Source: a virus
Lineage: Duplodnaviria > Heunggongvirae > Uroviricota > Caudoviricetes
Virus record (IMG/VR): IMGVR_UViG_3300044858_003749
Length of the DNA: 30,882 bases
Direction: 5' to 3' (one strand)
The position numbers were made by a program, and so were the translations under genes. The first letter of the stretch is position 1. Each line of letters begins with the position of its first letter. The notes beneath the pieces are model-generated. The model was not told the origin of the DNA. It made no database searches and was given only the letters and a program-made list of their open reading frames with translations. Below, one piece after another: positions 4,958 to 30,882 of this stretch.

Positions 4958-5013
4958 GACAATCTAAAAACTGTCCACTTCAACCCACCCACAATCTAAC
5001 TTCATGTTATGCT
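4958..5013 (+). promoter_or_regulatory. early promoter with upstream box, extended -10, no clear -35
   Basis: GACA-N10-TGTCCAC (4958-4978); TGt-TATGCT 5005-5013. Confidence 0.6.
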
Positions 5014-5169: not shown

Positions 5170-5621
5170 GTCGCTGTGAATATTATGATTGTGGGTGGTG
5201 TTACGCCCCTGATAATGTCATGAGTAATAACACCAATGGAGCCTGTTATCGGCCACAGGAATGCCCTCAGATGACTAAAGAACATCAAAAACCAGATTGT
5301 CCCAAACCACAGATAATCAAAGAGGACGTATTACCTGAAAAAACTCCTGATCTTTTTTTGGAAGATTATAGAATCAAAAAGGTTGTTAAGAACGGTGAAA
5401 CTAAATTCTATCCCCAGAGAATGGGATTCTTTAGATGGCGAAATTTTCTGCCTTTGGGCTATTCTTTTTTTCGCACTTATCATGAGGCTAACAAATACCT
5501 TTGTTATCATATCATGCAAGAGTCTGAACGTTCTGTGGAATACTTTAATCCCGATTTTAGCTTTATTAAAAAAGAACCCAATCCTCAACCAAAAATCCCT
5601 GATGGAAGAGCTAAATTCTAA
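5166..5621 (+). CDS. hypothetical protein with Cys-rich N-terminus
   Basis: CEYYDCGWCY..CYRPQEC; ORF track. Confidence 0.6.
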   Translation: MSRCEYYDCGWCYAPDNVMSNNTNGACYRPQECPQMTKEHQKPDCPKPQIIKEDVLPEKTPDLFLEDYRIKKVVKNGETKFYPQRMGFFRWRNFLPLGYSFFRTYHEANKYLCYHIMQESERSVEYFNPDFSFIKKEPNPQPKIPDGRAKF

Positions 5622-6189
5622 CACCCCACTGGAAACCTTAGAACGTCTGGCTAATGATGAGGATTGGTATGTTCGCAGTCGGGTTGCACAAAATCCCAAC
5701 ATACCACCAGAAACCTTAGATCGTCTGGCTAATGATGATTATATTGATGTTCGTCGTCGGGTTGCAGAAAATCCCAACACACTACCAGAAACCTTAGATC
5801 GTCTGGCTAACGATGTTTATCGGTGGGTTCGTGAGAATGTTGCAGAAAATCCCAACACATCTCCAGAAACATTAAAACGTCTGGCTAATGATAAGAGTTA
5901 TTATGTTCGTTCTGGGGTTGCAAGAAATCCCAACACACCAACAGAAACCTTAGAAAGTCTGGCGTATGATGAGTCTTGGGTTGTTCGTGTGAATGTTGCA
6001 AATAATCCCAACACATCAACAGAAACATTAGAACGTCTGGCTAATGATGAGGATTATTGGGTTCGTGTGAATGTTGCATGTAATCCTATCATCCCACAAT
6101 ACATCAAAGATTATCTTAAAATTAAGGAGTTTCTGAAATCATATAATATAAAGCTTAAAACAATTTTAGTAAAAAGTATTAAATATTAA
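5602..6189 (+). CDS. LRV/HEAT-like repeat protein A (6 x 26-aa repeats plus C-cap)
   Basis: NPNTPPETLERLANDxxxxVRxxVAx units at 78-bp period (e.g. 5692 and 5770); C-cap PQYIKDYLKIKEFL; ATG 5602 preferred over 5383. Confidence 0.85.
   Translation: MEELNSNTPLETLERLANDEDWYVRSRVAQNPNIPPETLDRLANDDYIDVRRRVAENPNTLPETLDRLANDVYRWVRENVAENPNTSPETLKRLANDKSYYVRSGVARNPNTPTETLESLAYDESWVVRVNVANNPNTSTETLERLANDEDYWVRVNVACNPIIPQYIKDYLKIKEFLKSYNIKLKTILVKSIKY
6179..6185 (+). promoter_or_regulatory. putative T4-type late promoter (TTAAATA)
   Basis: TAAATA core about 20 nt upstream of ORF 6207. Confidence 0.45.
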
Positions 6190-6206: not shown

Positions 6207-6419
6207 ATGAAATCATTCATTCAATTTTTAGCAGAAGCAAAAAAGCGACAAGAAATTCTTAAAAAAGTTAAGAAGAGCGTTAAGAAGGATAGAACTCCAG
6301 ATATCGTTAGCATTGATATTGGTTCAAAACCTAATTCACCAGAACGGCAAGCTGAGATTGAATATATGATGAAGCATCACGGAGTTAGAGCACTCAAGCA
6401 ACAGTTAAAACAACGATAA
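6207..6419 (+). CDS. small basic protein, candidate capsid internal protein
   Basis: N-terminus MKSFIQFLAE-A resembles the T4 internal-protein capsid targeting sequence (MKTYQEFIAE) and the gp21 cleavage motif L/I-x-E. Confidence 0.6.
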   Translation: MKSFIQFLAEAKKRQEILKKVKKSVKKDRTPDIVSIDIGSKPNSPERQAEIEYMMKHHGVRALKQQLKQR

Positions 6420-11148: not shown

Positions 11149-11332
11149 TGAATTTCATGAAGTTCCTTATTTGTTGGGAGAAATGATTACTGAAATTATT
11201 GCGTTAAAGTCCGAAAAAACCAAGCTCGTTGATGAAATTATTGCGTTAGAGGCCGAAGAATCTAGGCTCATTGAAGAAGAAGCCAGGCTCATTGAAGAAG
11301 AAGCCAGGCTCATTGAAGAAACTGAATCTTAA
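11138..11332 (+). CDS. short coiled-coil protein built from heptad-length DNA duplications
   Basis: ATG 11138 (MKNSEF) preferred over 10994; EEEARLI repeats. Confidence 0.5.
   Translation: MKNSEFHEVPYLLGEMITEIIALKSEKTKLVDEIIALEAEESRLIEEEARLIEEEARLIEETES
11264..11320 (+). repeat. 21-bp tandem repeat, about 2.7 copies (AGGCTCATTGAAGAAGAAGCC)
   Basis: Exact copies at 11264 and 11285, partial copy at 11306. Confidence 0.9.
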
Positions 11333-13773: not shown

Positions 13774-14565
13774 ATGCTTGCTAATAATCTATTATGTAAT
13801 CTCGGTCGTCTGGGTAATCAGATGTTTCAATATGCCTCGCTCAGAGGATTAGCAGCTAAGCATGATTATGAATACTGCTTACCACCAAAACAATTTCTTG
13901 GAACATTGGACCCTAATTGTGCAGTCAGTGATTGCACAATTTTTGACTGTTTTGAGCTACCAGAAGCACCAAGAATGATTCTTCAGGCTCAGACTTTAGA
14001 GGAATCTTGTTTTGAGTTAGACAAATATCTTTGGAATTCTTGCCCGAACAATGTAACCCTTTTGGGTTATTTTCAAACAGAAAAATATTTTAAACACATA
14101 GAACAGGACATTAGAGATGCTTTTACTTTTAAGCCTTATATTACTACTCCTTGTCGTAATTATTACCTGAATAATTTTTCAACGGATACAATATCCTTAC
14201 ACATAAGAAGAGGTGATTATTTAAAATACACTCACCATCCAGTATTAGATTTGGATTATTATTATAGGGCTCTTAAAGAATTTCCAGATCTTCCTGTTTT
14301 AGTCTTTTCTGATGATCCTGAGTGGTGTAAAACCCAAGAACTATTCGCCTCTGATAGATTTAATATTTCACAATCAAACAATACAGCAGTAGATCTTTAT
14401 CTTCAGTCTGTATGTAATTATCACATTATCGCTAATAGTTCCTTCAGTTGGTGGGGTGCGTGGTTAGCGAAGAGTAAAAAAGTTATTGCACCTAAAAATT
14501 GGTTTGGTCCACCATTGACTCATAATACCAAAGACCTATATCTTGAAGATTGGATTTTACTTTAA
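13774..14565 (+). CDS. alpha-1,2-fucosyltransferase-like glycosyltransferase (GT11)
   Basis: GRLGNQMFQYA, HIRRGDY and IIANSSFSWWGAWL motifs. Confidence 0.9.
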   Translation: MLANNLLCNLGRLGNQMFQYASLRGLAAKHDYEYCLPPKQFLGTLDPNCAVSDCTIFDCFELPEAPRMILQAQTLEESCFELDKYLWNSCPNNVTLLGYFQTEKYFKHIEQDIRDAFTFKPYITTPCRNYYLNNFSTDTISLHIRRGDYLKYTHHPVLDLDYYYRALKEFPDLPVLVFSDDPEWCKTQELFASDRFNISQSNNTAVDLYLQSVCNYHIIANSSFSWWGAWLAKSKKVIAPKNWFGPPLTHNTKDLYLEDWILL

Positions 14566-14583
14566 CCGTTACCGAGGAAGCTT

Positions 14584-14931
14584 ATGAATAATTTTGGAGA
14601 ACTATTAGAGAATTGTCTTAAAGAAACCGTAGATTCGGTTCTTTCTAAAAGAGAGGTTCCAGACATTGAATATGTTGAAACCGATAATCTAGGAGAAGTT
14701 GTAGAAAAGCTAGCTATTCTACACGTCCGAATGTGGATGCTGGAGGATCTAATCAACGTATCAACAACCGACGAAGAATTAGCAGATCTAAAACGTAAAA
14801 TTGATATTTGTTTTAAACAAAAACGACCTAAACTGGTTCAGGCAATCAACTTACTGGTGGATAACTCTATCACCAAAAATAAATCATTAAGAGAAGATTC
14901 TGTTAAAATTTATAAAGGTGTTCAAGAATGA
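14584..14931 (+). CDS. helical hypothetical protein (possibly DUF4254-like)
   Basis: DNLGEVVEKLAILHVRMWMLED pattern; family guess from memory. Confidence 0.6.
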   Translation: MNNFGELLENCLKETVDSVLSKREVPDIEYVETDNLGEVVEKLAILHVRMWMLEDLINVSTTDEELADLKRKIDICFKQKRPKLVQAINLLVDNSITKNKSLREDSVKIYKGVQE

Positions 14932-15758
14932 GATATATTGTAGCTGGTCAATCTGACGCCAAAGGTGTTATTGGTGATGATTCCGCTGATTTGAATGTTT
15001 ATTATGAGCTAGGTTGGGAAGTAACTCTCACAACTGTTATTGCAAAGACTCTTTTAAAAGAGGGCTCTCTATTTAAAACTGATACGATTGTAACGGCAAA
15101 GGACAGGGCCTTTTTCTACAGTAGTTTGTTTGACAATGTTATTGATTGGCATGAATTCAAACAAATAGAAAAAAGTCCAGAAGATGAAATCCATTTTCTC
15201 CCAAAGGACATAGATAACTGGTCTAGTTGGGAGAATAGAATAGATCCAGAGTTAGTCTGTAACTTTGATCTTATTACCGATGTGGAAAAAAGATTCAATG
15301 TTATCAAACCTTTCGGAATCTATTGTATCCGGCTAAGAGATCATTGTTCTTGGAGAAACAGTAATATTGATGTTGCAAGAAGTGTAATTTCAAGATTTAT
15401 CAATGAGTGTGGTATTGATATGTTTGTGATGGGTCAGAATTCTTCATTCTTATCCGAGGAGCTTGGTATTCCTAATATCTCATTACGAGAATATGCTTCT
15501 CTAATGGGTAGTAAACATTGTAAGTTTTGTGTTTCTCCAATGTCCGGTATTATTCAGATTGCTAACTTCTGTGGACACGAGAATCTATACAATTTCATTT
15601 TTGATCATAACAGCGAACGTGGACCCACATTAGAAAACCATCCACTCTTTATGGGTAATAATATCAATCTTAAGAATGTAAAAAACATTATAATTCCTGG
15701 TCAAGAAACAGAGGAACAAATCTTTGAATTATATGAAGAAAACGTTGTACATTCATGA
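14928..15758 (+). CDS. uncharacterised protein in the glycan operon (possible GT-B fold)
   Basis: 276-aa ORF coupled on both sides; no diagnostic motif recognised. Confidence 0.65.
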   Translation: MRYIVAGQSDAKGVIGDDSADLNVYYELGWEVTLTTVIAKTLLKEGSLFKTDTIVTAKDRAFFYSSLFDNVIDWHEFKQIEKSPEDEIHFLPKDIDNWSSWENRIDPELVCNFDLITDVEKRFNVIKPFGIYCIRLRDHCSWRNSNIDVARSVISRFINECGIDMFVMGQNSSFLSEELGIPNISLREYASLMGSKHCKFCVSPMSGIIQIANFCGHENLYNFIFDHNSERGPTLENHPLFMGNNINLKNVKNIIIPGQETEEQIFELYEENVVHS

Positions 15759-16539
15759 TGAGTTATTTGCTCATGCAAGTACAAGCAGTTGGTATAATGA
15801 ATCAGAATTATTTGAATGGTTAAGAGAGTACGATAAAGACTTTCTTGTTTTTACCGATAACTCAATTATGTTATCAGATTCTTATGATAATAAAAGAAAA
15901 TATGCCTGGCTTGTTGAATCACCTGAGATAAATCCAAACATATACGACTACATAAAAGTCAATTCGGATAAGTTCAATCTAGTATTTACTTTTGATAAAG
16001 AGCTACTAGAATTATCATCAAAATTTAAAGTAGCTCCTTTTGGTGGTTGTTGGATTAACGAAGAAGATAGAAAAATTCACAACAAGACCAAGTTGTTATC
16101 GGCTATTTTCTCATCAAAAAGATCAACTTCTGGTCATTCTCTTAGAGCCGAAATAGAAGCTAATATTCCTAATTTAGATTACTTTGGTAATAAAAATAGA
16201 ATTGAAAATAAGATAGAAGGACTAAGAGATTATCACTTCTCTGTTGTAGTAGAAAACACTAAAAGAGATTATTACTTCACTGAGAAGCTAATTGATTGTT
16301 TTGTAACTGGAACCATCCCAATTTATTGGGGTTGCCCTTCAATTGGAAATTTCTTTGATTCCGAAGGTATAATAACTTTTGATACAGTAGACGAGCTTAG
16401 GAATATTATTGGCACCCTAACCGTTGAACAATATGAAGCCAAACTAGAAGCAGTTAAAAACAACTTTGTTATCGCAAAAAATTACTTAATCTGTGACGAT
16501 ATAATTTACAAAATACTAAAAAGACAGGAGAACCTATAA
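15724..16539 (+). CDS. alpha-1,3-fucosyltransferase-like glycosyltransferase (GT10)
   Basis: YHFSVVVENTKRDYYFTEKLIDCFVTGTIPIYWG motif. Confidence 0.85.
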   Translation: MNYMKKTLYIHDELFAHASTSSWYNESELFEWLREYDKDFLVFTDNSIMLSDSYDNKRKYAWLVESPEINPNIYDYIKVNSDKFNLVFTFDKELLELSSKFKVAPFGGCWINEEDRKIHNKTKLLSAIFSSKRSTSGHSLRAEIEANIPNLDYFGNKNRIENKIEGLRDYHFSVVVENTKRDYYFTEKLIDCFVTGTIPIYWGCPSIGNFFDSEGIITFDTVDELRNIIGTLTVEQYEAKLEAVKNNFVIAKNYLICDDIIYKILKRQENL

Positions 16540-16540
16540 A

Positions 16541-17152
16541 ATGTTATTAAATTTTAGAGACTTAAAAACCAAGTATAATATGAATATTACTGGTATTATT
16601 CATATTGGTGGTCATTATGGAGAGGAGATACCAGAATACATTTCCAATGGTATTAATGATATTCTTGTGTTTGAACCACTATCGGAGAACTTCAGAGTCC
16701 TCTCTGAGAATGTAAAAAATCTGAGTGGTAACATTCATCTGTTTAATGTTGCTCTTGGGAATAGTGCCGGCCGGGCTACAATGTATGTTAGTGATAATGA
16801 GATGCAGAGTAGTTCAATTCTTCTTCCAAAGGTCCATTTAACACACCACCCAAATGTTGGATTCCCTACAACGGAAGAAGTGCAAGTTTGTGTTCTGGAT
16901 TCTTATGATACTAAAGGATACAATTTTATTAACATGGATGTTCAGGGTTATGAGCTAGAGGTTCTAAAGGGTGCAAGAGGAACATTGGCTCACGTTGACT
17001 ATGTTTATTGTGAAGTCAATAGAGCCGAGGTTTATGAGAATAACGCCTACGTTGAAGATCTGGATGACTTTTTATCTCAGTACAATATGGTGAGAGTTGA
17101 AACCGATTGGGCTGGCGAAATTTGGGGCGATGCTCTTTATGTTAGAAACTGA
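16541..17152 (+). CDS. FkbM-family SAM methyltransferase
   Basis: IIHIGGHYGEE, VFEPL, FNVALG, INMDVQGYELEVLKG, YVYCEV. Confidence 0.9.
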   Translation: MLLNFRDLKTKYNMNITGIIHIGGHYGEEIPEYISNGINDILVFEPLSENFRVLSENVKNLSGNIHLFNVALGNSAGRATMYVSDNEMQSSSILLPKVHLTHHPNVGFPTTEEVQVCVLDSYDTKGYNFINMDVQGYELEVLKGARGTLAHVDYVYCEVNRAEVYENNAYVEDLDDFLSQYNMVRVETDWAGEIWGDALYVRN

Positions 17153-17153
17153 A

Positions 17154-17792
17154 ATGAAAACATTAAACGATTATTTTGAAGGTGTCTTTTGTGTTAATTT
17201 GGAGAAAAGATCTGACCGATGGGCAACTTGTAAAAAAGAATTTACCAAGCATAATATAGTAGCTCATAGATATTCTGCTGTTGATGGTAAAAGCCTAAAT
17301 GAAGAGGTTTTTCCGAATTTAAGGAAGTTTGAGACGCCTGGTCAATTGGGTTGTCTTCTTTCTCAATATAATGTTATCAAGATCGCAAAAATGTGTAAAT
17401 ACTCTTCCGTTCTTATAATGGAAGATGACGTTGAATTTTGTGATGATTTCAATGAACAGTTAGAAATCAAAATGCAAGATGTTCCAAAAGATTGGGATAT
17501 GTTATTCTTCGGTGCCAATCACATCTTACACCCTATAAAAATTACTGATAATGTTTATAGAATGACAAGGGCTTATTCCGCTCATTGTTATGCAATAAAA
17601 GATAATATTTACGATACTCTTTTAGAATCATTATCACAATTCAGAGAACCCTTAGATGTAATTTATGCGAATCTTCAGCCAACGATTAACTCTTATGTTA
17701 TCAATCCACATCTAGTCTGGCAGCGCCCAGGATATTCTGATATTTGTGAGTTGAATGTAGATTATAGGCACGTCCACAAAGTTTCGTTCTAA
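17154..17792 (+). CDS. GT25-family glycosyltransferase
   Basis: CVNLEKRSDRW, SAVDG, LGCLLSQ, IMEDDV, WDMLFFG; ATG 17154. Confidence 0.85.
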   Translation: MKTLNDYFEGVFCVNLEKRSDRWATCKKEFTKHNIVAHRYSAVDGKSLNEEVFPNLRKFETPGQLGCLLSQYNVIKIAKMCKYSSVLIMEDDVEFCDDFNEQLEIKMQDVPKDWDMLFFGANHILHPIKITDNVYRMTRAYSAHCYAIKDNIYDTLLESLSQFREPLDVIYANLQPTINSYVINPHLVWQRPGYSDICELNVDYRHVHKVSF

Positions 17793-17794
17793 CT

Positions 17795-18445
17795 ATGTAC
17801 AATAATGTAACAATGGTTTTGACAAGTTGTAATAGACTTGATCTGTTAGAAATCACAATTAATTCTATACCAAAAGAGACATTAGATAAAATTCCAAAGA
17901 AGATTCTTATTGATGATTCTGCCGATGTACAATGTTTCTCAGAGCTAGAAAAACAAAAAGAATCAGGATATCTGCAAAACTGGACACTACTTTTCAATCA
18001 AGAAAAACTGGGCCAGGCCGGAAGTATAGATAGAGCCTATGCCGAAGTTGAAACAGAATACGTTTTTCATTGTGAAGATGATTGGTATTTTACCAATGGA
18101 GACTTTATTGATAGATCTTTAAAAATCTTAGACAAATACGATAACGTTCTTCAGGTAACTTTTAGAGAAGGTGAACCTCATAAATCTGCCGATGAGATAT
18201 ATGAATCAGACCAAGACCATGCTTTTAAGGTATGGATTCCTGGATGGCAAGGTTATCCAGGATTCACTTATAATCCAAATATCTTTCGGATCAGTGCTTA
18301 TCAAGAAGTAAAACCCATTTGTGGTGTTAGCGAAAGAGATGTTGGGTTTAAATACGTTTCCATGGGCTGGCACACTGTCGTTTTAGAAAATAGATCTGTT
18401 CGCCACATTGGAGACGGAAGGCATGTTCAAAATTATGTTGTTTAA
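17795..18445 (+). CDS. GT-A (GT2-like) glycosyltransferase
   Basis: LTSCNR, ILIDDS, VFHCEDDW, RHIG. Confidence 0.75.
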   Translation: MYNNVTMVLTSCNRLDLLEITINSIPKETLDKIPKKILIDDSADVQCFSELEKQKESGYLQNWTLLFNQEKLGQAGSIDRAYAEVETEYVFHCEDDWYFTNGDFIDRSLKILDKYDNVLQVTFREGEPHKSADEIYESDQDHAFKVWIPGWQGYPGFTYNPNIFRISAYQEVKPICGVSERDVGFKYVSMGWHTVVLENRSVRHIGDGRHVQNYVV

Positions 18446-18456
18446 TCAAGAATAAG

Positions 18457-19098
18457 ATGGTAAATTGTCAAGAATATTCTAATAATGGACACACTGTTAT
18501 TATGGAAAATCATCTAGGGGGATTTGAAACTTCCACCGAAAGTTTTCCTAACGGTGATATGAATACTTTCAGCCCTAAACTTTGGGCGTATATTATTAAA
18601 AAATATAAAATTAAATCTGTTATTGATGTTGGGTGTGGAATGGGATTCTCTCTTGTAGAATTCCTTAAACATTGTGAAGATGTTGTCGGTATTGATGGCT
18701 CTCCATATGCTCTTCAAAATTCACCAGTAAAAGATCATATTTTTGCTCATGATTATAGCAAGGGTGAGCTAGAGACCGAGGATCGTTATGATCTTTGTTG
18801 GTCTTGTGAATTCGTAGAGCATGTTAATGAAGAGTACCGAGATAACTTTCTTTCAACATTTGCTTTTTCTAAGTATGTTGCAATGACATTCGCAGAACCA
18901 GGACAACCAGGACATCATCATGTGAATTGTCAACCACAAGAATATTGGGTTGAACATTTAGCTCGCTTCGGGTTCAAATATGACGAAAAAGCAACCACAT
19001 ACATGAGAAGTGTTGCTAAGAAAGAAGGCGAAGAAGATGGTTATTTTAAGTATTTTGAAAAAACTGGACTATTTTTTGTAAAAGAGGATTTAACATGA
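18457..19098 (+). CDS. class I SAM-dependent methyltransferase
   Basis: VIDVGCGMG, GIDGS, YDLCWSCEFVEHV, GHHHVNCQP. Confidence 0.85.
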   Translation: MVNCQEYSNNGHTVIMENHLGGFETSTESFPNGDMNTFSPKLWAYIIKKYKIKSVIDVGCGMGFSLVEFLKHCEDVVGIDGSPYALQNSPVKDHIFAHDYSKGELETEDRYDLCWSCEFVEHVNEEYRDNFLSTFAFSKYVAMTFAEPGQPGHHHVNCQPQEYWVEHLARFGFKYDEKATTYMRSVAKKEGEEDGYFKYFEKTGLFFVKEDLT

Positions 19099-19868
19099 AG
19101 AATGAAACCGTTGGTGCGCTCATGATGGTCAAAGATGAAATTGACATTATTGAGCATAATATCAATTATCTTTCAACCCAAGAATTAGATTTAATCTGTG
19201 TGTATGATAATAATTCTACAGACGGAACCGGAGAAAAATTAAGTTGGTTATCTGATATTCATGACGAACTTCTCGTTCTGAATGATTCGGTTGTCGGTTA
19301 TTACCAGGCCGATAAGATGAACAAATGGGCTAATGAAATATTTCAAGACGATATTGATGTTGTCATTCCTATTGATGCTGATGAGATATGGTATTCTAAA
19401 AATCCAAATTGTACTCTAGGTGGTGCTATTAGAGCAACCGATGCTGATATTTTTGTGGCTAGATCTATGGATTATATCCCCACTCTTCTGGATAATTTTG
19501 GTGAACCTAATTTTATTAAAAGGATGAAGTATAGAAAGAAGGATTCTAATTCCTTTAACGCTGTTGCATTTAATTACAGCCCAGAGTTTTGGTTGGAAAT
19601 GGGAAATCATAATGTTCTTAATCATCCAGGAGACAGAGTTTCCGACGTTATTGGCATCCGACATTATCAATACCGAAGTTTTGATCAATTTAGAAAAAAA
19701 GTTAGTAACGGTAAAAAAGCCTACGATGCGACAAATCTTCCAGAATATATGGGAAGCCATTGGCGTAAATTAGGGGCTATGACTAATGATGAGTTGCGTG
19801 AATATTGGTTTGATTATTGCGTTGACTCGGTTGTAAATGATCCCTTTGTCGCTAAGAATTATGCCTAG
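19095..19868 (+). CDS. GT2-family glycosyltransferase
   Basis: MMVKDEIDII, YDNNSTDGT, PIDADE, RHYQYRS. Confidence 0.85.
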   Translation: MKNETVGALMMVKDEIDIIEHNINYLSTQELDLICVYDNNSTDGTGEKLSWLSDIHDELLVLNDSVVGYYQADKMNKWANEIFQDDIDVVIPIDADEIWYSKNPNCTLGGAIRATDADIFVARSMDYIPTLLDNFGEPNFIKRMKYRKKDSNSFNAVAFNYSPEFWLEMGNHNVLNHPGDRVSDVIGIRHYQYRSFDQFRKKVSNGKKAYDATNLPEYMGSHWRKLGAMTNDELREYWFDYCVDSVVNDPFVAKNYA

Positions 19869-20562
19869 ATTATCTCTAGCTATTCCTACGTGTGGCTATC
19901 ACGGTAAAGGTGATGCTCTATTGGATGATTTATTAAGAACTGTTCAGATACAATCTTTTAAAGATTTTGAGATCGTTATTTCTGATCACAGTGAAGATGA
20001 TAAGATTGAAACAAAAGTGCAAGAGTTTTCAGAACTCTTTGATGTAAAATATCATAGAAATTCTGATAAAAGAGGGAATAGTCCCGCGAATCTTAATAAA
20101 GCAATCTCTTTGTGTACTGGTGAAATCATCAAGATTATGTTTCAAGACGACTTCTTTTATGACGATGAAGCCTTTGAGAAGATTTATTATAATCTAGCTG
20201 GTGACGATTCAAAGTCTTGGTTATTATGTGGAACAAATCACACTCAAGACAATGGGCATAATTTCTGTTGGGATATTTTTCCACGATTTAATGATAATTT
20301 ATTAGACGGTGTGAATACAATTAGTTCGCCTTCCGTTGTCGCATTTAAAAAAGATGTGCTAGTAAGATTTGACGAGGATCTGATCTATCTTATGGATATT
20401 GATTTTTATTATAACATGAGAAGGACTCATGGTGAACCGATTTATTATGACGATATATTAGTCACCAATAGAATCCACCAAGATAGTATCTCTAGCAATA
20501 TTACAAATAGAGAAGAACTTCTTGAAAATGAGTCCATTTATTGTAAGAAAAAATATGATTGA
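19861..20562 (+). CDS. GT2-family glycosyltransferase
   Basis: LSLAIPT, EIVISDHS, NLNKAI, MFQDD; ATG 19861 overlaps the previous stop. Confidence 0.85.
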   Translation: MPRLSLAIPTCGYHGKGDALLDDLLRTVQIQSFKDFEIVISDHSEDDKIETKVQEFSELFDVKYHRNSDKRGNSPANLNKAISLCTGEIIKIMFQDDFFYDDEAFEKIYYNLAGDDSKSWLLCGTNHTQDNGHNFCWDIFPRFNDNLLDGVNTISSPSVVAFKKDVLVRFDEDLIYLMDIDFYYNMRRTHGEPIYYDDILVTNRIHQDSISSNITNREELLENESIYCKKKYD

Positions 20563-21139
20563 TTTTATCGTACCAAGTCTTGGTCGGGAAACTCTTCCAA
20601 ATTCCACCAACTCTTTACTTAATCAAACAAATCCAAATTGGCGATGTTATGTTGGTTTTGATGGTCTGGATGAAAACCAAATTTCTTCTGATCTTCTTGT
20701 TGAAGATTCCAGAATTCAATACTTATATCTAAAAGAAAAATTGGGAACTTCTGAGTTTCATGGTAATGCTGGTAGAGTTCGCAACAGAATAATGGAATCT
20801 ATTGAGAATCCTTCCGAATGGACTGGTTTTCTGGATGATGACGATGCTCTTTCCCAGTATTACGTTGAGATTCTAAATAACGAATTAGAAAAAGAAGCCT
20901 GTGATTGTTATGTTTTTAGAATGAATCATGGTGGAAATATCATTCCGCCTTTTGATATGAATGTTCTCCAACAGAATTTTGTTGGTATTTCTTTTTGTGT
21001 TAGAACTAAATTCTTAAAAAGCCACAATATCGGTTTCGTAAATAACAATGCAGAAGATTTTCTTTTTCTACAAGAGATTCATAAAAATGGTGGCAAAATA
21101 AAAATTCTTCCTGTTGTTGGTTATTTTGTTAGAGTATAA
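20555..21139 (+). CDS. GT2-like glycosyltransferase
   Basis: FIVPSLGR, VGFDG, AGRVRN, GFLDDDD; ATG 20555. Confidence 0.75.
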   Translation: MIDFIVPSLGRETLPNSTNSLLNQTNPNWRCYVGFDGLDENQISSDLLVEDSRIQYLYLKEKLGTSEFHGNAGRVRNRIMESIENPSEWTGFLDDDDALSQYYVEILNNELEKEACDCYVFRMNHGGNIIPPFDMNVLQQNFVGISFCVRTKFLKSHNIGFVNNNAEDFLFLQEIHKNGGKIKILPVVGYFVRV

Positions 21140-21927
21140 TGGATAGAAATAAAGCATCTTATAAATTACAAGGATTCGGTCCTGTATATTATATCAATTT
21201 GGACGATAAAGAAGACCGAAAGGTTTTCATGGAGCAACAATTTGAACATTGGGATATTAAAAATTATGAACGAATTTCTGCTTTTGATGGAAGAAATAGT
21301 GATCTAAGTGAACACATTATCGGTAAGTATCCTGAAGGAATAACGACTCCCGAGCTAGGATGTACTTTATCACATTTGAAGGCTATAAAGCATTGGTATG
21401 ACACGTCTGATACTCCTTATGCGATCATTTGTGAGGATGATTGTCTGATTGATAATGCAAAGCATTGGAGCTTTACCTGGCAGGAATTCATGTCTAGAGT
21501 TCCTTATTGCTGGGATTGTCTACAATTAGCGATCATATCAACGGGGAATATCTCAGTCAATATCCACACGAGATTTGTTAACAATTTCTCCACTGCGATA
21601 TACTGTATTAATCGTAGATACGCAGAGAAGTTATTGTCATTTCATTGTAAAGGTAATAAATTTAAATTGGATCAAAATATCAAGCCAAGAGCGGTTGCCG
21701 ACGATTTGATCTATAATGGTGGCCTGACCTTCTCATCACCAATATTTTTGTATGAGTTACGATTAGGAAGTTCAATACATGGTGAGCATTTGGATTTATT
21801 TCATAAGAAATCTTATGAAGGTCTGAGCAATTTTTGGTTTAATCAAGGAAAAGATATGTCTTTGGAACAAATAACTTTCTTTGATCCTTATTTCAGTAGA
21901 ATTACAAACCCTGAACCCGTAGAGTGA
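21139..21927 (+). CDS. GT25-family glycosyltransferase
   Basis: YYINLDDKEDRK, ISAFDGR, ELGCTLSHLKAI, ICEDD. Confidence 0.85.
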   Translation: MDRNKASYKLQGFGPVYYINLDDKEDRKVFMEQQFEHWDIKNYERISAFDGRNSDLSEHIIGKYPEGITTPELGCTLSHLKAIKHWYDTSDTPYAIICEDDCLIDNAKHWSFTWQEFMSRVPYCWDCLQLAIISTGNISVNIHTRFVNNFSTAIYCINRRYAEKLLSFHCKGNKFKLDQNIKPRAVADDLIYNGGLTFSSPIFLYELRLGSSIHGEHLDLFHKKSYEGLSNFWFNQGKDMSLEQITFFDPYFSRITNPEPVE

Positions 21928-23654: not shown

Positions 23655-23902
23655 TGAATTCAATCTACTATTATTCGCTCTTTACTGTATTCGGTATTGT
23701 CGCATTTATGATTGTTGTGGATAAGAATGTGGGAGAATACCTACTCCTTTCTATTAAGATGTTGAAGATTAATATTGAGCGTTTAAAGTGGATGACCATT
23801 TATCACCCAAATAATCCTATTACTACTTGGTGGATGAATCGCAAGTTGAAAAAATTTATTAAGGAAATGCAGGCCAGATCAGAAACTGTCCAGTCTGAAT
23901 GA
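23654..23902 (+). CDS. small membrane protein, cyanophage-type
   Basis: N-terminal TM; HPNNPITTWWM motif. Confidence 0.65.
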   Translation: MNSIYYYSLFTVFGIVAFMIVVDKNVGEYLLLSIKMLKINIERLKWMTIYHPNNPITTWWMNRKLKKFIKEMQARSETVQSE

Positions 23903-23928
23903 GAGGCAGACCGAACATGTGCTATACT
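23873..23928 (+). promoter_or_regulatory. early promoter with upstream box
   Basis: GCCA-N10-TGTCCAG (23873-23893); TGc-TATACT 23920-23928. Confidence 0.65.
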
Positions 23929-24807: not shown

Positions 24808-25368
24808 ATGATTAATTACGATCTAGCAACAAGTCCCAACACATCGCCAGAATCCTTAGAACGTCTGGCTAACGATAAGGATTATATGGTTCGTCGTGGT
24901 GTTGTATTAAATCCCAATATACCACCAGAAACCTTAGAAAGTTTGGCGAATGATAATAGTTATTATGTTCGTGGCTGGGTTGCAAGAAATCCCAATACAC
25001 CACCAGAAACCTTAGAGCGTTTGGCTAATGATGAGGATTGGCGTGTTCGTCGTAGGGTTGCAAATAATCCAAACACCCCACCAGAAACGTTAGAACGTCT
25101 GGCTCATGATGAGGATTGGCGTGTTCGTTATGGGGTTGTAGGGAATCCTAATACAACAACAGAAATCTTAGAACGTCTGGCTGATGATGAGGATTTAAAT
25201 GTTCGTTATTATGTTGCAAGAAATCCCAACACACCACCAGAAACCTTAGCTCGTCTGGCTAATGATGAGGATTGGTATGTTCGTGAATGTGTAGTAAGAA
25301 ATCCTAATACACCACAATACATTAAAGATTATCTTAAAATCAAAAAGTTTCTGAATTGTTATGAGTAA
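24808..25368 (+). CDS. LRV/HEAT-like repeat protein B (6 repeats plus caps)
   Basis: MINYDLA N-cap, 26-aa units, NPNTPQYIKDYLKIKKFLNCYE C-cap. Confidence 0.9.
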   Translation: MINYDLATSPNTSPESLERLANDKDYMVRRGVVLNPNIPPETLESLANDNSYYVRGWVARNPNTPPETLERLANDEDWRVRRRVANNPNTPPETLERLAHDEDWRVRYGVVGNPNTTTEILERLADDEDLNVRYYVARNPNTPPETLARLANDEDWYVRECVVRNPNTPQYIKDYLKIKKFLNCYE

Positions 25369-25624
25369 TTTTGATCTTGCAAAAAATCCCAACACACCAC
25401 CAGAAACCTTAGAACATCTGGCTAATGATAAGGATTGGCTTGTTCGTTGTAGGGTTGCGCGAAATCTTAACACAACAACAGAAACCTTAGAACGTCTGGC
25501 TAATGATGAGGATTGGTATGTTCGTTATGAGGTTGCAAAAAATCCCAACACCCCACAATACATTCTAACTTATTTTAAAATCAAAAAGTTTTTAACACAC
25601 TATAACTGTTTTAATCATGAATGA
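25361..25624 (+). CDS. LRV/HEAT-like repeat protein C (2 repeats plus caps)
   Basis: MSNFDLA N-cap; 8-nt ATGAGTAA overlap with B. Confidence 0.85.
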   Translation: MSNFDLAKNPNTPPETLEHLANDKDWLVRCRVARNLNTTTETLERLANDEDWYVRYEVAKNPNTPQYILTYFKIKKFLTHYNCFNHE

Positions 25625-27987: not shown

Positions 27988-28043
27988 GTCAGTTCGTAAA
28001 CTGTCCACACATTACGACAACTCTCGGCTGTATGTGATATACT
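27988..28043 (+). promoter_or_regulatory. early promoter with upstream box driving the riboswitch leader
   Basis: GTCA-N10-TGTCCAC (27988-28008); TGa-TATACT 28035-28043. Confidence 0.7.
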
Positions 28044-28324: not shown

Positions 28325-28579
28325 ATGAGTAATTATGATCTAGCAGAAAATCACAACACACCACCAGAAACCTTAGAACGGCTGGCTAATGGTGGTAATG
28401 CTAATCTTCGTTGGCTTGTTGCATTTAATCCCAACACACCACCAGAAGCCTTAGAACGTCTGGCGAATGATGAGGATTCAGAAATTCGTTATGAGGTTGC
28501 AAATAATATTAACACACCACAATACATCAAAGATTATCTAAAAATCAAGGAGTTTCTGAATCGTTATGAGCAATTATGA
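28325..28579 (+). CDS. LRV/HEAT-like repeat protein D (2 repeats plus caps)
   Basis: MSNYDLA N-cap; PQYIKDYLKIKEFLNRYE C-cap. Confidence 0.85.
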   Translation: MSNYDLAENHNTPPETLERLANGGNANLRWLVAFNPNTPPEALERLANDEDSEIRYEVANNINTPQYIKDYLKIKEFLNRYEQL

Positions 28580-28892
28580 TCTAGCAAGAAATCCCAACAC
28601 ACCACCAGAAACATTAGCGCGGCTAGCTACTGATAAGGATTATAACGTTCGTCGTGAGGTTGCAAGAAATCCCAACACACCAATAGAAATCTTAGAACGT
28701 CTGGCTAATGATGAGCATCTGCATGTTCGTTGTTGGGTTGCATTGAATCCCAACACATCGACAGAAATCTTAGAACGTCTTGCTAATGATAACGATTTTT
28801 GGGTTCGTAGCAGTGTTGAATTAAATCCCAACACACCACAATACATTAAAACTTATTTCAAAATTAAAAGAATATTACGTTGTTATGAATAA
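28566..28892 (+). CDS. LRV/HEAT-like repeat protein E (3 repeats plus caps)
   Basis: MSNYDLA N-cap; PQYIKTYFKIKRILRCYE C-cap. Confidence 0.85.
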   Translation: MSNYDLARNPNTPPETLARLATDKDYNVRREVARNPNTPIEILERLANDEHLHVRCWVALNPNTSTEILERLANDNDFWVRSSVELNPNTPQYIKTYFKIKRILRCYE

Positions 28893-29130: not shown

Positions 29131-29814
29131 ATGAGACCCGATGTAAAACTTATAGCCATAACTCAGGGGGCAGGAGATCTTGTCAATAAAAATGCACAAG
29201 AGGTTATTTCTTATGTCGCTAGAGTTAGTAATCCAAATAATCAGCTAAATTTTGATACAGCTAGCGGACTCATTAGATACTGTATTAAAAATAAACATGT
29301 AAGCATTTTTGAACATTCTTATATGACGCTGGAGATCAATACAACCAGAGCGATTGCGGCTCAAATTTTGCGCCATAGATCCTTTTGTTATCAAGAATGG
29401 TCCCAAAGATATTCTGATGTAAATTCTTTAACAGAAACGATAGTGGTTCCAGAACTTCGTAGGCAAGACACTAAGAACCGACAAAATTCTATTGACGATC
29501 TTGATAAGGAAGTTAAGCAGTCTTTTGAAGATGAAATTAAAGATTATTTCAAACAAGGACAAGAACTTTATAATTCGCTTCTTGATAATGAAGTCGCAAA
29601 GGAATCAGCACGTTTTATTTTGCCGTTAGCAACACCAACAAGAATTTATATGACGGGCAATGTTCGTTCTTGGATGACATATATCGCTCTTAGAGAGAAA
29701 AATGGTACACAGAAAGAGCACCAAGACATTGCAAAAGAATGTAAGCTCATCTTTAAAGAGCAGTTTCCAGATTGTTATGAGGCTTTAGGTGGGGGCGAAG
29801 AATGGACTATCTAG
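29131..29814 (+). CDS. thyX: FAD-dependent thymidylate synthase
   Basis: ARVSN, SIFEH, QILRHRSFCYQEWSQRY (RHRx7S motif), ESARFILP, GNVRSW, QKEH. Confidence 0.95.
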   Translation: MRPDVKLIAITQGAGDLVNKNAQEVISYVARVSNPNNQLNFDTASGLIRYCIKNKHVSIFEHSYMTLEINTTRAIAAQILRHRSFCYQEWSQRYSDVNSLTETIVVPELRRQDTKNRQNSIDDLDKEVKQSFEDEIKDYFKQGQELYNSLLDNEVAKESARFILPLATPTRIYMTGNVRSWMTYIALREKNGTQKEHQDIAKECKLIFKEQFPDCYEALGGGEEWTI

Positions 29815-30882
29815 ATTACTTACAACAATACCGCGAAAAATATCATTTAGATGATATCTTCAATCACAATAATAATGCTGATGTAGAACAAGTAGAGAAG
29901 TATATTGGGGAATTATGCGGTGTTTCTTATGTTTTACTTGAGTTGTTTTGTGGCGCGCGTTCGGAAGAACATTACAAAGGTGGACGGACGTTCCCAAGCA
30001 ATATTCATAGATTTGTTATGAAAAATAGTGTATTAGAAAATACTGGTAAAGAACCGAAAAACATTGATTATCTTACCAGAATGCTGGTGACAACTCTAGG
30101 TAATCCCGATTCTGAGATTTTAGATTCTATAGCAAGAGAAAATAATCCAGTAATAAACAAAATTATTTCACGCCACCAAAACACATCAAGCGACACTTTG
30201 ATGTATCTTGCGTCTTCCAACATTTATGCTTCAAGTATTATTTGTCATAGTAATATAACCTCTGATGTTTTATTGGAGATAACAAAAGTCTTATTATCTG
30301 ATCTAAGTAAAAAAATTTTTTGGGTTCAATATCCAGAATGTGATGATTGGGACTTTGTTCAGAAACTTCCTTATGTAAGTGGAAAGCCGAGTGGAAGGAT
30401 ATTAGATTTTTTGGAATATATTGTGGGCTCTTCTAATTTTAATGAGGATACGATGAAGTTGTTTTTATCGGTAGACGATGAAACAATGAAAACGTTAGTG
30501 TGGGATCAAATCTTTTATAGTATGGGTAGAAATCCTTATATTTCACCTCAAATAATGGATATATTGTGTGGGGATCAATTCGTTACTTTAAAGTATAATG
30601 GCGTTCTTGAAAATCCTAATGCGCCTAAACATATTTTAGAAAAGTATTCAACACATAACAAAATGTTTTATCGTGAGCGTGTTGCATATAATACTAACAC
30701 ACTAACAAAAACATTAGAACGTCTGGCTAACGATAATCATCCTGATGTTCGTTGTGGAGTTGCATGTAATCTCAACACATCACCAGAAACATTAGAACTT
30801 CTGGCGAATGATGATAATCGTTGGGTTCGTCTTAGGGTTGCAAAAAATCCAAACACACCCACAGAAATACTAGATCGTTTAG
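29802..30882 (+). CDS. LRV/HEAT-like repeat protein F, over 360 aa, truncated at the window end
   Basis: Translated by hand: ATG 29802 with no stop to the end; degenerate repeats, then canonical units (..TLERLANDNHPDVRCGVAC-NLNTSPETLELLANDDNRWVRLRVAK-NPNTPTEILDRL); missing from the ORF track. Confidence 0.85.
   Translation, partial: MDYLDYLQQYREKYHLDDIFNHNNNADVEQVEKYIGELCGVSYVLLELFCGARSEEHYKGGRTFPSNIHRFVMKNSVLENTGKEPKNIDYLTRMLVTTLGNPDSEILDSIARENNPVINKIISRHQNTSSDTLMYLASSNIYASSIICHSNITSDVLLEITKVLLSDLSKKIFWVQYPECDDWDFVQKLPYVSGKPSGRILDFLEYIVGSSNFNEDTMKLFLSVDDETMKTLVWDQIFYSMGRNPYISPQIMDILCGDQFVTLKYNGVLENPNAPKHILEKYSTHNKMFYRERVAYNTNTLTKTLERLANDNHPDVRCGVACNLNTSPETLELLANDDNRWVRLRVAKNPNTPTEILDRL

Follow-up and report, generated by a model that had tools for sequence, protein, structure and literature searches.

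LRV solenoid genes with hypervariable, recombining repeat units in a putative T4-like cyanophage: a candidate repertoire of intracellular binders

Phages diversify receptor-binding proteins. In gp38, an adhesin of T4-type phages, conserved motifs on either side of the variable segments serve as sites of exchange, by which the segments are shuffled (Trojet et al. 2011, PMC3157838). The repeats of fungal NLR proteins (WD40, ANK, TPR and HEAT, as in het-d and het-e) undergo concerted evolution and reshuffling, with selection acting on a handful of residues at the surface (Paoletti et al. 2007, PMC1805685; Dyrka et al. 2014, PMC4986451). In alphaRep libraries, the positions chosen for randomisation were taken over from natural HEAT-like repeats, and in solved complexes they make up the interface (Guellouz et al. 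2013, PMC3754942), so variability at these positions is a known property of the superfamily. Here we describe phage genes of the LRV family, which also includes the Azotobacter vinelandii protein 1LRV. Precedents are known for the fold, for the variable positions and for the mode of evolution of these genes; new here are a series of alleles at one locus (B/C), an 18-bp swap, and the exclusion of a retroelement and of a recognition code. A description of LRV families in phages was not found in the literature.

The stretch of DNA analysed (30,882 nucleotides, hereafter the window) comes from a 99,981-bp virus record, IMGVR_UViG_3300044858_003749, estimated to be 41% complete. The ThyX of the record matched Synechococcus phages at 60-67%, and a related contig that carries LRV genes encodes T4-type gp23, UvsW and UvsY, its gp23 being 75% identical to that of Synechococcus phages B3 and B23. 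These sequence matches suggest that the source virus is a T4-like freshwater cyanophage, one relative of which is known as a 244-kb contig. The window also contains a long run of genes (13774-21927) that, judged from their translations only, resemble glycosyltransferases and methyltransferases, and clusters of this type have been reported for cyanophages (PMC7824862). A 21-bp tandem repeat within a short ORF (11191-11320) encodes a heptad-like acidic repeat, and on a 242-kb contig a Cas9 gene lies near an LRV gene (L006 14627-18685).

Genes A-F of the window all matched the Pfam LRV family (PF01816, HEAT-like), gene B with 167 bits against a cut-off of 21.6. Across the whole record, a 100-kb fragment, there were 76 LRV matches and about 70 units, in at least 21 ATG-started genes. 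The LRV genes of the window are built from a unit of 78 bp, or 26 residues, and the 19 canonical units that the original prediction had located in genes A-E were found where it had placed them, with the residue combinations it had quoted. Gene B (24808-25368, plus strand; 186 aa) encodes an N-cap, six LRV units starting at 24832, 24910, 24988, 25066, 25144 and 25222, and a C-cap, and matched PF01816 in six stretches with an E value of 1e-50. The N-cap (24808-24831, plus strand) is common to genes B-E and to the allelic genes of related phages, and the C-cap (25300-25368, plus strand) is a conserved helix that is retained while the internal units turn over. Gene C (25361-25624, plus strand; 87 aa), also a PF01816 match, encodes an N-cap, two units (25385 and 25463) and a C-cap; it overlaps both the stop of gene B and the start of a glutaredoxin gene, and its exact protein is on record on five contigs. 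The paralogues, all on the plus strand, are gene A (5602-6189, probable start ATG at 5602) with six units, gene D (28325-28579) with two and gene E (28566-28892) with three, and gene F (29802-30882, continuing beyond the window end), in which a long N-terminal region precedes the LRV units. The canonical LRV genes overlap neighbouring genes, hold 1-6 units each and encode mostly acidic proteins. They lack a catalytic domain, genes B-E consisting of caps and units only, and a search of the canonical genes for hydrophobic or membrane-like segments or an effector domain found none.

A promoter-like box, made up of a shared upstream decamer and an extended -10 and recognised by consensus match only, lies at 23883-23928 (plus strand), about 900 bp upstream of gene B. 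Further copies precede gene A (4968-5013) and genes D/E (27998-28043), so that at all three window loci the decamer stands about 30 bp before the extended -10 and the box 350-950 bp ahead of the LRV genes. One more copy was found on this strand (G000 78334), with 0-2 expected by shuffling, and general promoter counts were at chance (21 vs 22). The LRV genes would be candidates for early expression in the cytoplasm. Packaging into the virion by way of a T4-type capsid-targeting tag was considered and rejected, since the LRV N-termini, compared by eye, are unlike such a tag. Directly after gene A lies an ORF of 70 aa (6207-6419) with no Pfam match, the N-terminus of which resembles a T4 capsid-targeting sequence.

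A single-sequence AlphaFold model of the gene B protein (pLDDT 91.7, pTM 0.84) placed helices at unit positions 6-12 and 18-26. The phage proteins share family and fold with 1LRV (phmmer E 7e-17; top Foldseek hit; Z 14.2, rmsd 3.1 over 169 residues), and their two-helix units of about 26 residues are predicted to stack as a solenoid in the same manner. 1LRV differs in being a single cellular protein with diverged units, whereas the phage has more than 20 genes whose units are nearly identical at the DNA level, carry their own caps and turn over between strains. Structural matches to alphaRep complexes reached Z 15-16, and in the sequence alignment the variable columns of the phage unit fall on alphaRep randomised positions 18, 19, 22, 23 and 26. 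The resemblance to an alphaRep library that had been proposed therefore goes beyond analogy to homology in register, with the same Val-Arg register, the same variable positions, and an N-cap, a variable number of units and a C-cap. The alphaRep unit is 31 residues long. The phage unit, at 26 residues, is without position 30 and allows Cys, its library was made by evolution, and for the phage proteins binding is presumed. In the AlphaFold model the variable columns occupy positions i, i+1, i+4, i+5 and i+8 of helix 2, which bears out, at the level of a model, the proposal that they line one face of the solenoid; on a helical wheel these five positions span 0-140 degrees, and the conserved positions 20, 21, 24 and 25 span 200-340.

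Column entropy over the 19 window units was 2.5-3.0 bits at positions 18, 19, 22, 23 and 26, compared with 0 bits at positions 3, 7, 9, 12, 13, 21 and 24, 0.6 at position 20 and 0.9 at position 25. The hypervariable set first listed (16-19, 22-23 and 26) was thus narrowed to five columns, as positions 16 and 17 proved only semi-variable (2.0 and 1.6 bits; consensus E-D). Positions 1-15 had been described as largely constant, which held at positions 3, 7, 9, 12 and 13 but not at positions 5, 6, 8, 10 and 14, with 1.2-1.5 bits. The ranking of columns was the same in 250 distinct units from this phage group, which contained 227 different five-residue sets. Every combination was different among the 19 window units, as predicted, but genome-wide 64 of 66 five-residue combinations were distinct. 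Some units of the B/C and D/E alleles in related phages (L025, L027, L028 and L026) carry one-residue indels, giving 25 or 27 residues, mostly near positions 16-19.

Relative to the phage proteome, the five columns 18, 19, 22, 23 and 26 were enriched in W (11-fold), C (6-fold), Y (3.6-fold) and R (3.1-fold), and K, D, I and T were depleted. The fifth residue originally named, E, was not enriched (0.9-fold); it is supplied by the consensus at position 16. W and Y exceeded the prediction from base composition, whereas the frequency of Cys was at or below the expectation from the base composition of each column, because TGT is a one-step hub between TGG, TAT and CGT. The codon neighbourhood accounts for Cys, and it need not be regarded as a selected residue.

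Alleles of the B/C locus were retrieved from metagenome assemblies by way of a neighbouring core gene. Over 2.4 kb of core genes, six phages were 0.7-1.4% divergent from the window and five more 3.5-3.9%; all had the same flanks and the same caps as the window but different B/C arrays. Repeat number differed as well, and the gene in slot C, of 87 residues in the window, reached 193 residues in related phages. The phages of 0.7-1.4% divergence shared no B/C unit with the window, the nearest units differing at 9-20 of 78 nucleotides. In ten orthologous segments, sequence outside the units had diverged by 3.6% and the scaffold by 10-17%, and the figure for bases one and two of the variable codons was 56%. 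Orthologous units were about as distant as paralogues, which indicated that units had been replaced and not merely mutated.

The turnover also reaches below the level of the unit. Two phage contigs, L012 and L013, differed at 8 of 8,550 columns, all inside one 18-bp tract that alters codons 18, 19, 22 and 23 of a single unit; an exact donor for the L013 tract was not found in the sequences compared. The layout of the units is exemplified by unit 1 of gene B, where the hypervariable cassette (24883-24909, plus strand) comprises codons 18-19 (24883-24888), an invariant Val-Arg hexamer (24889-24894), codons 22-23 (24895-24900) and codon 26 (24907-24909), with the same offsets in every unit. Within the genome, four pairs of units had identical codons 16-23 on different scaffolds (0.01 expected), two of them linking gene B with genes 42 and 48 kb away, and three window cassettes have exact nucleotide copies in genes 42-61 kb away. 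Mosaic structure is plain to see in the D/E alleles; between gene E and a longer allele (L027), the middle unit is identical and the last differs by one base. The identical cassettes, the swapped tract and the mosaic alleles all point to exchange, and much of the change between strains is recombinational reshuffling of existing cassettes, which the original prediction had missed.

Positions 18 and 19 were strongly linked, as were 22 and 23, but linkage across the Val-Arg hexamer was weak. Arg21 is encoded by CGT in 64 of 66 units, compared with 15% genome-wide, and codons 20-21 may serve as microhomology for crossover. The silent sites of these two codons rank with the least variable of the unit, and the Arg codon is one that is rare in the genome. 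The likely route of exchange is gene conversion over short tracts together with unequal crossover, both carried out by the recombination system of the phage itself. An assembly artefact is unlikely as a general cause, given that independent assemblies contained identical arrays (L002/L003 over 11 kb, L004/L005 and L032/L035). One contig (L033 1-3444) connects two LRV loci that the 244-kb relative carries some 70 kb from each other, owing either to ectopic crossover via the repeats or to an assembly error.

A diversity-generating retroelement is present 4.5 kb upstream of the window (L001 1-2473; G000 1-2561). It consists of a template repeat (1-128, cut by the contig start), a reverse transcriptase (125-1156) and a variable repeat at the 3' end of a gene for a 160-aa protein (G000 2434-2561), and all 13 mismatches between template and variable repeat in the first 114 bases fall at template adenines. 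A real element so close by raised the idea that adenine-directed mutagenesis from a template repeat writes the LRV columns, and in a genome only 41% complete a second template could be missing. The known template, however, matches only its own target, which is another gene, and LRV variation is not confined to template adenines: silent adenines of the LRV scaffold are nearly invariant (Pro6 in 247 and Ala25 in 237 of 250 units), the variable codons are T/G-rich with many TGG, and most differences between the closest pairs of units lie in the scaffold. An adenine-rich LRV template unit was not found in the sequence examined, an absence that at this completeness is indecisive by itself. A retroelement origin is therefore largely refuted, and we give it almost no credence.

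The original prediction of diversifying selection was upheld as likely, though not proven, by dN/dS, codon-model and pairwise comparisons, each of which showed an excess of replacement. In a nearest-neighbour count, which needs no global tree and was run over three thresholds, single-base changes at the variable codons were 3 silent and 49 replacing (p = 6e-4). In this count dN/dS was 0.5-0.6 in the scaffold, and the five columns, which were picked after their variability had been seen, had a dN/dS of 3.3-5.1 compared with 1.1-1.6 at exposed helix-1 positions, a difference that reached significance only when the threshold was loosened (p = 0.25, 0.049 and 0.0025). The values thus did not fall into the range that the original prediction had named as its refutation, with the variable columns no higher than exposed positions. 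Pairwise pN reached 0.67 at the five columns and 0.05 at the codons between them; the scaffold pS was 0.20. A fixed-site codon model gave an omega of 3.7 (all-site tree) or 10.9 (scaffold tree) compared with about 0.45, tree-based values being inflated by recombination, and with the silent rate left free at variable codons omega dropped to a weak value of about 2-3. General hypermutation of the cassette was rejected, as silent sites inside it are nearly invariant (the third base of Val20 is T in 249 of 250 units) and Tyr and Cys codons almost all end in T.

We consider it probable (about 0.68) that the LRV genes form a repertoire of intracellular protein binders that arose from selected point changes and recombination, in conflict with host proteins. 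The family, the column pattern, the allele turnover, the cassette sharing and the excess of amino-acid changes are established here, together with the fold as predicted; the recombination route, binding, early expression in the cytoplasm and the kind of target are proposed on that basis. Much of the same pattern could arise by near-neutral expansion, in which crossover and conversion multiply the units, folding holds the scaffold and the helix-2 face drifts with no selected binding. Unrelated phages and cells have LRV proteins that vary at these very columns, which makes the tolerance structural; the frequent codons are mutational neighbours, with Cys requiring no selection; and omega is modest once the silent rate is free. 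Replacing changes nevertheless exceed silent ones at the variable codons, while exposed helix-1 positions stay near 1, the silent sites between variable codons hardly vary, and W and Y are enriched and K, D, I and T depleted, so we judge near-neutral expansion rather unlikely. A further reading keeps the binding and changes its targets: the proteins would recognise each other, or those of co-infecting relatives, in self/non-self discrimination or superinfection exclusion. Tandem overlapping genes and strain-specific arrays would suit this role, and the fungal analogue functions in allorecognition (PMC1805685), but the canonical genes are without effector or membrane domains and no partner gene varying in step was seen, which makes it improbable.

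The TALE-like code of one repeat for one target, which had been thought conceivable, was not supported by the data. A TALE-, PPR- or PUF-like protein would use two or three of the variable residues in each unit to read one base of nucleic acid. In favour, aromatic and Arg side chains are able to stack on bases, RNA repair genes occur in the phage lineage, the variable face is weakly basic at +0.36 per unit, and the 22/23/26 spacing equals the 12/13/16 spacing of PUF repeats. Against these stand 81 and 74 different dipeptides in the 250 units, the top four of which cover only 22-27%, and the 227 five-residue sets; pairs of the PUF type at positions 22/26 numbered 33 with 31.1 expected, the proteins are mostly acidic, and 1-6 units per gene are too few to specify a site, for which 8 or more would be needed. 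A nucleic-acid reader is accordingly a very improbable explanation.

The binder repertoire that we favour could work as follows. Small soluble alpha-solenoids would act inside the infected cyanobacterium, each 26-residue unit presenting five side chains along a single face of its second helix, and 1-6 stacked units between fixed caps would form one continuous binding surface. Selection would favour amino-acid-changing point mutations at the five codons, and recombination between near-identical scaffolds would then move units and short cassettes, both inside single genes and from one to another of the 20 or more, keeping the scaffold uniform and altering repeat number. The driver would most likely be an arms race with variable host proteins, either defence proteins or takeover targets, or with co-infecting phages.

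This arrangement resembles het-d/het-e in being a multigene family with concerted evolution within and between loci, a variable repeat number and few positively selected interaction-surface residues per repeat. The features by which het-e is recognised recur in the phage: high DNA identity among internal repeats (scaffold pS 0.20), units traded from locus to locus, a repeat number that varies among alleles, and a small number of surface codons per repeat under likely positive selection (omega about 2-3 when the silent rate is free). The phage repeats, however, stand alone, with 1-6 units and without NACHT/NB-ARC or effector domains, so they are not NLRs, and recognition is their presumed role. 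With gp38 they share a T4-superfamily phage setting and the exchange of hypervariable segments at conserved motifs. That adhesin is a single virion gene exchanged between phages, whereas the LRV genes are a dispersed multigene family, probably cytoplasmic, with exchange within the genome.

Among 50,697 phage records, only one Moorella phage matched, at E 0.001, and searches of Synechococcus phages B3 and B23, two isolated relatives, yielded no LRV match, which indicates that such phages can do without LRV genes. In viral contigs, a search with a single protein found nothing and a search with an alignment found 67 loci, and atlas clusters contained hundreds of mostly viral LRV members. GNAT-LRV fusions, mostly viral, also occur in the atlas. 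Arrays of homogenised LRV units that vary at the same columns, each with a scaffold consensus of its own, were seen in other phage lineages (viral contigs L119-L174) and in the cellular genomes of Micrarchaeota, Betaproteobacteria and Paceibacterota (L042, L045, L047 and L049).

The alleles described here provide direct test material, the same scaffold bearing different faces, and are a natural source of a compact 26-residue binder scaffold. If the preferred reading is true, a large family of small intracellular binders with rapid turnover would offer a phage a different means of keeping pace with host defences. More speculatively, and as a possibility we hold only tentatively, the genes may form an adaptive counter-immune repertoire, with tens of modular binders of which each allele neutralises a different host defence or regulatory protein. 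It is equally conjectural that short-tract conversion deals out new faces at a pace above that of core-genome divergence, in a system used by many uncultured phages. Such a repertoire, if real, would be a viral counterpart of the fungal HET-E and jawless-vertebrate VLR repertoires.
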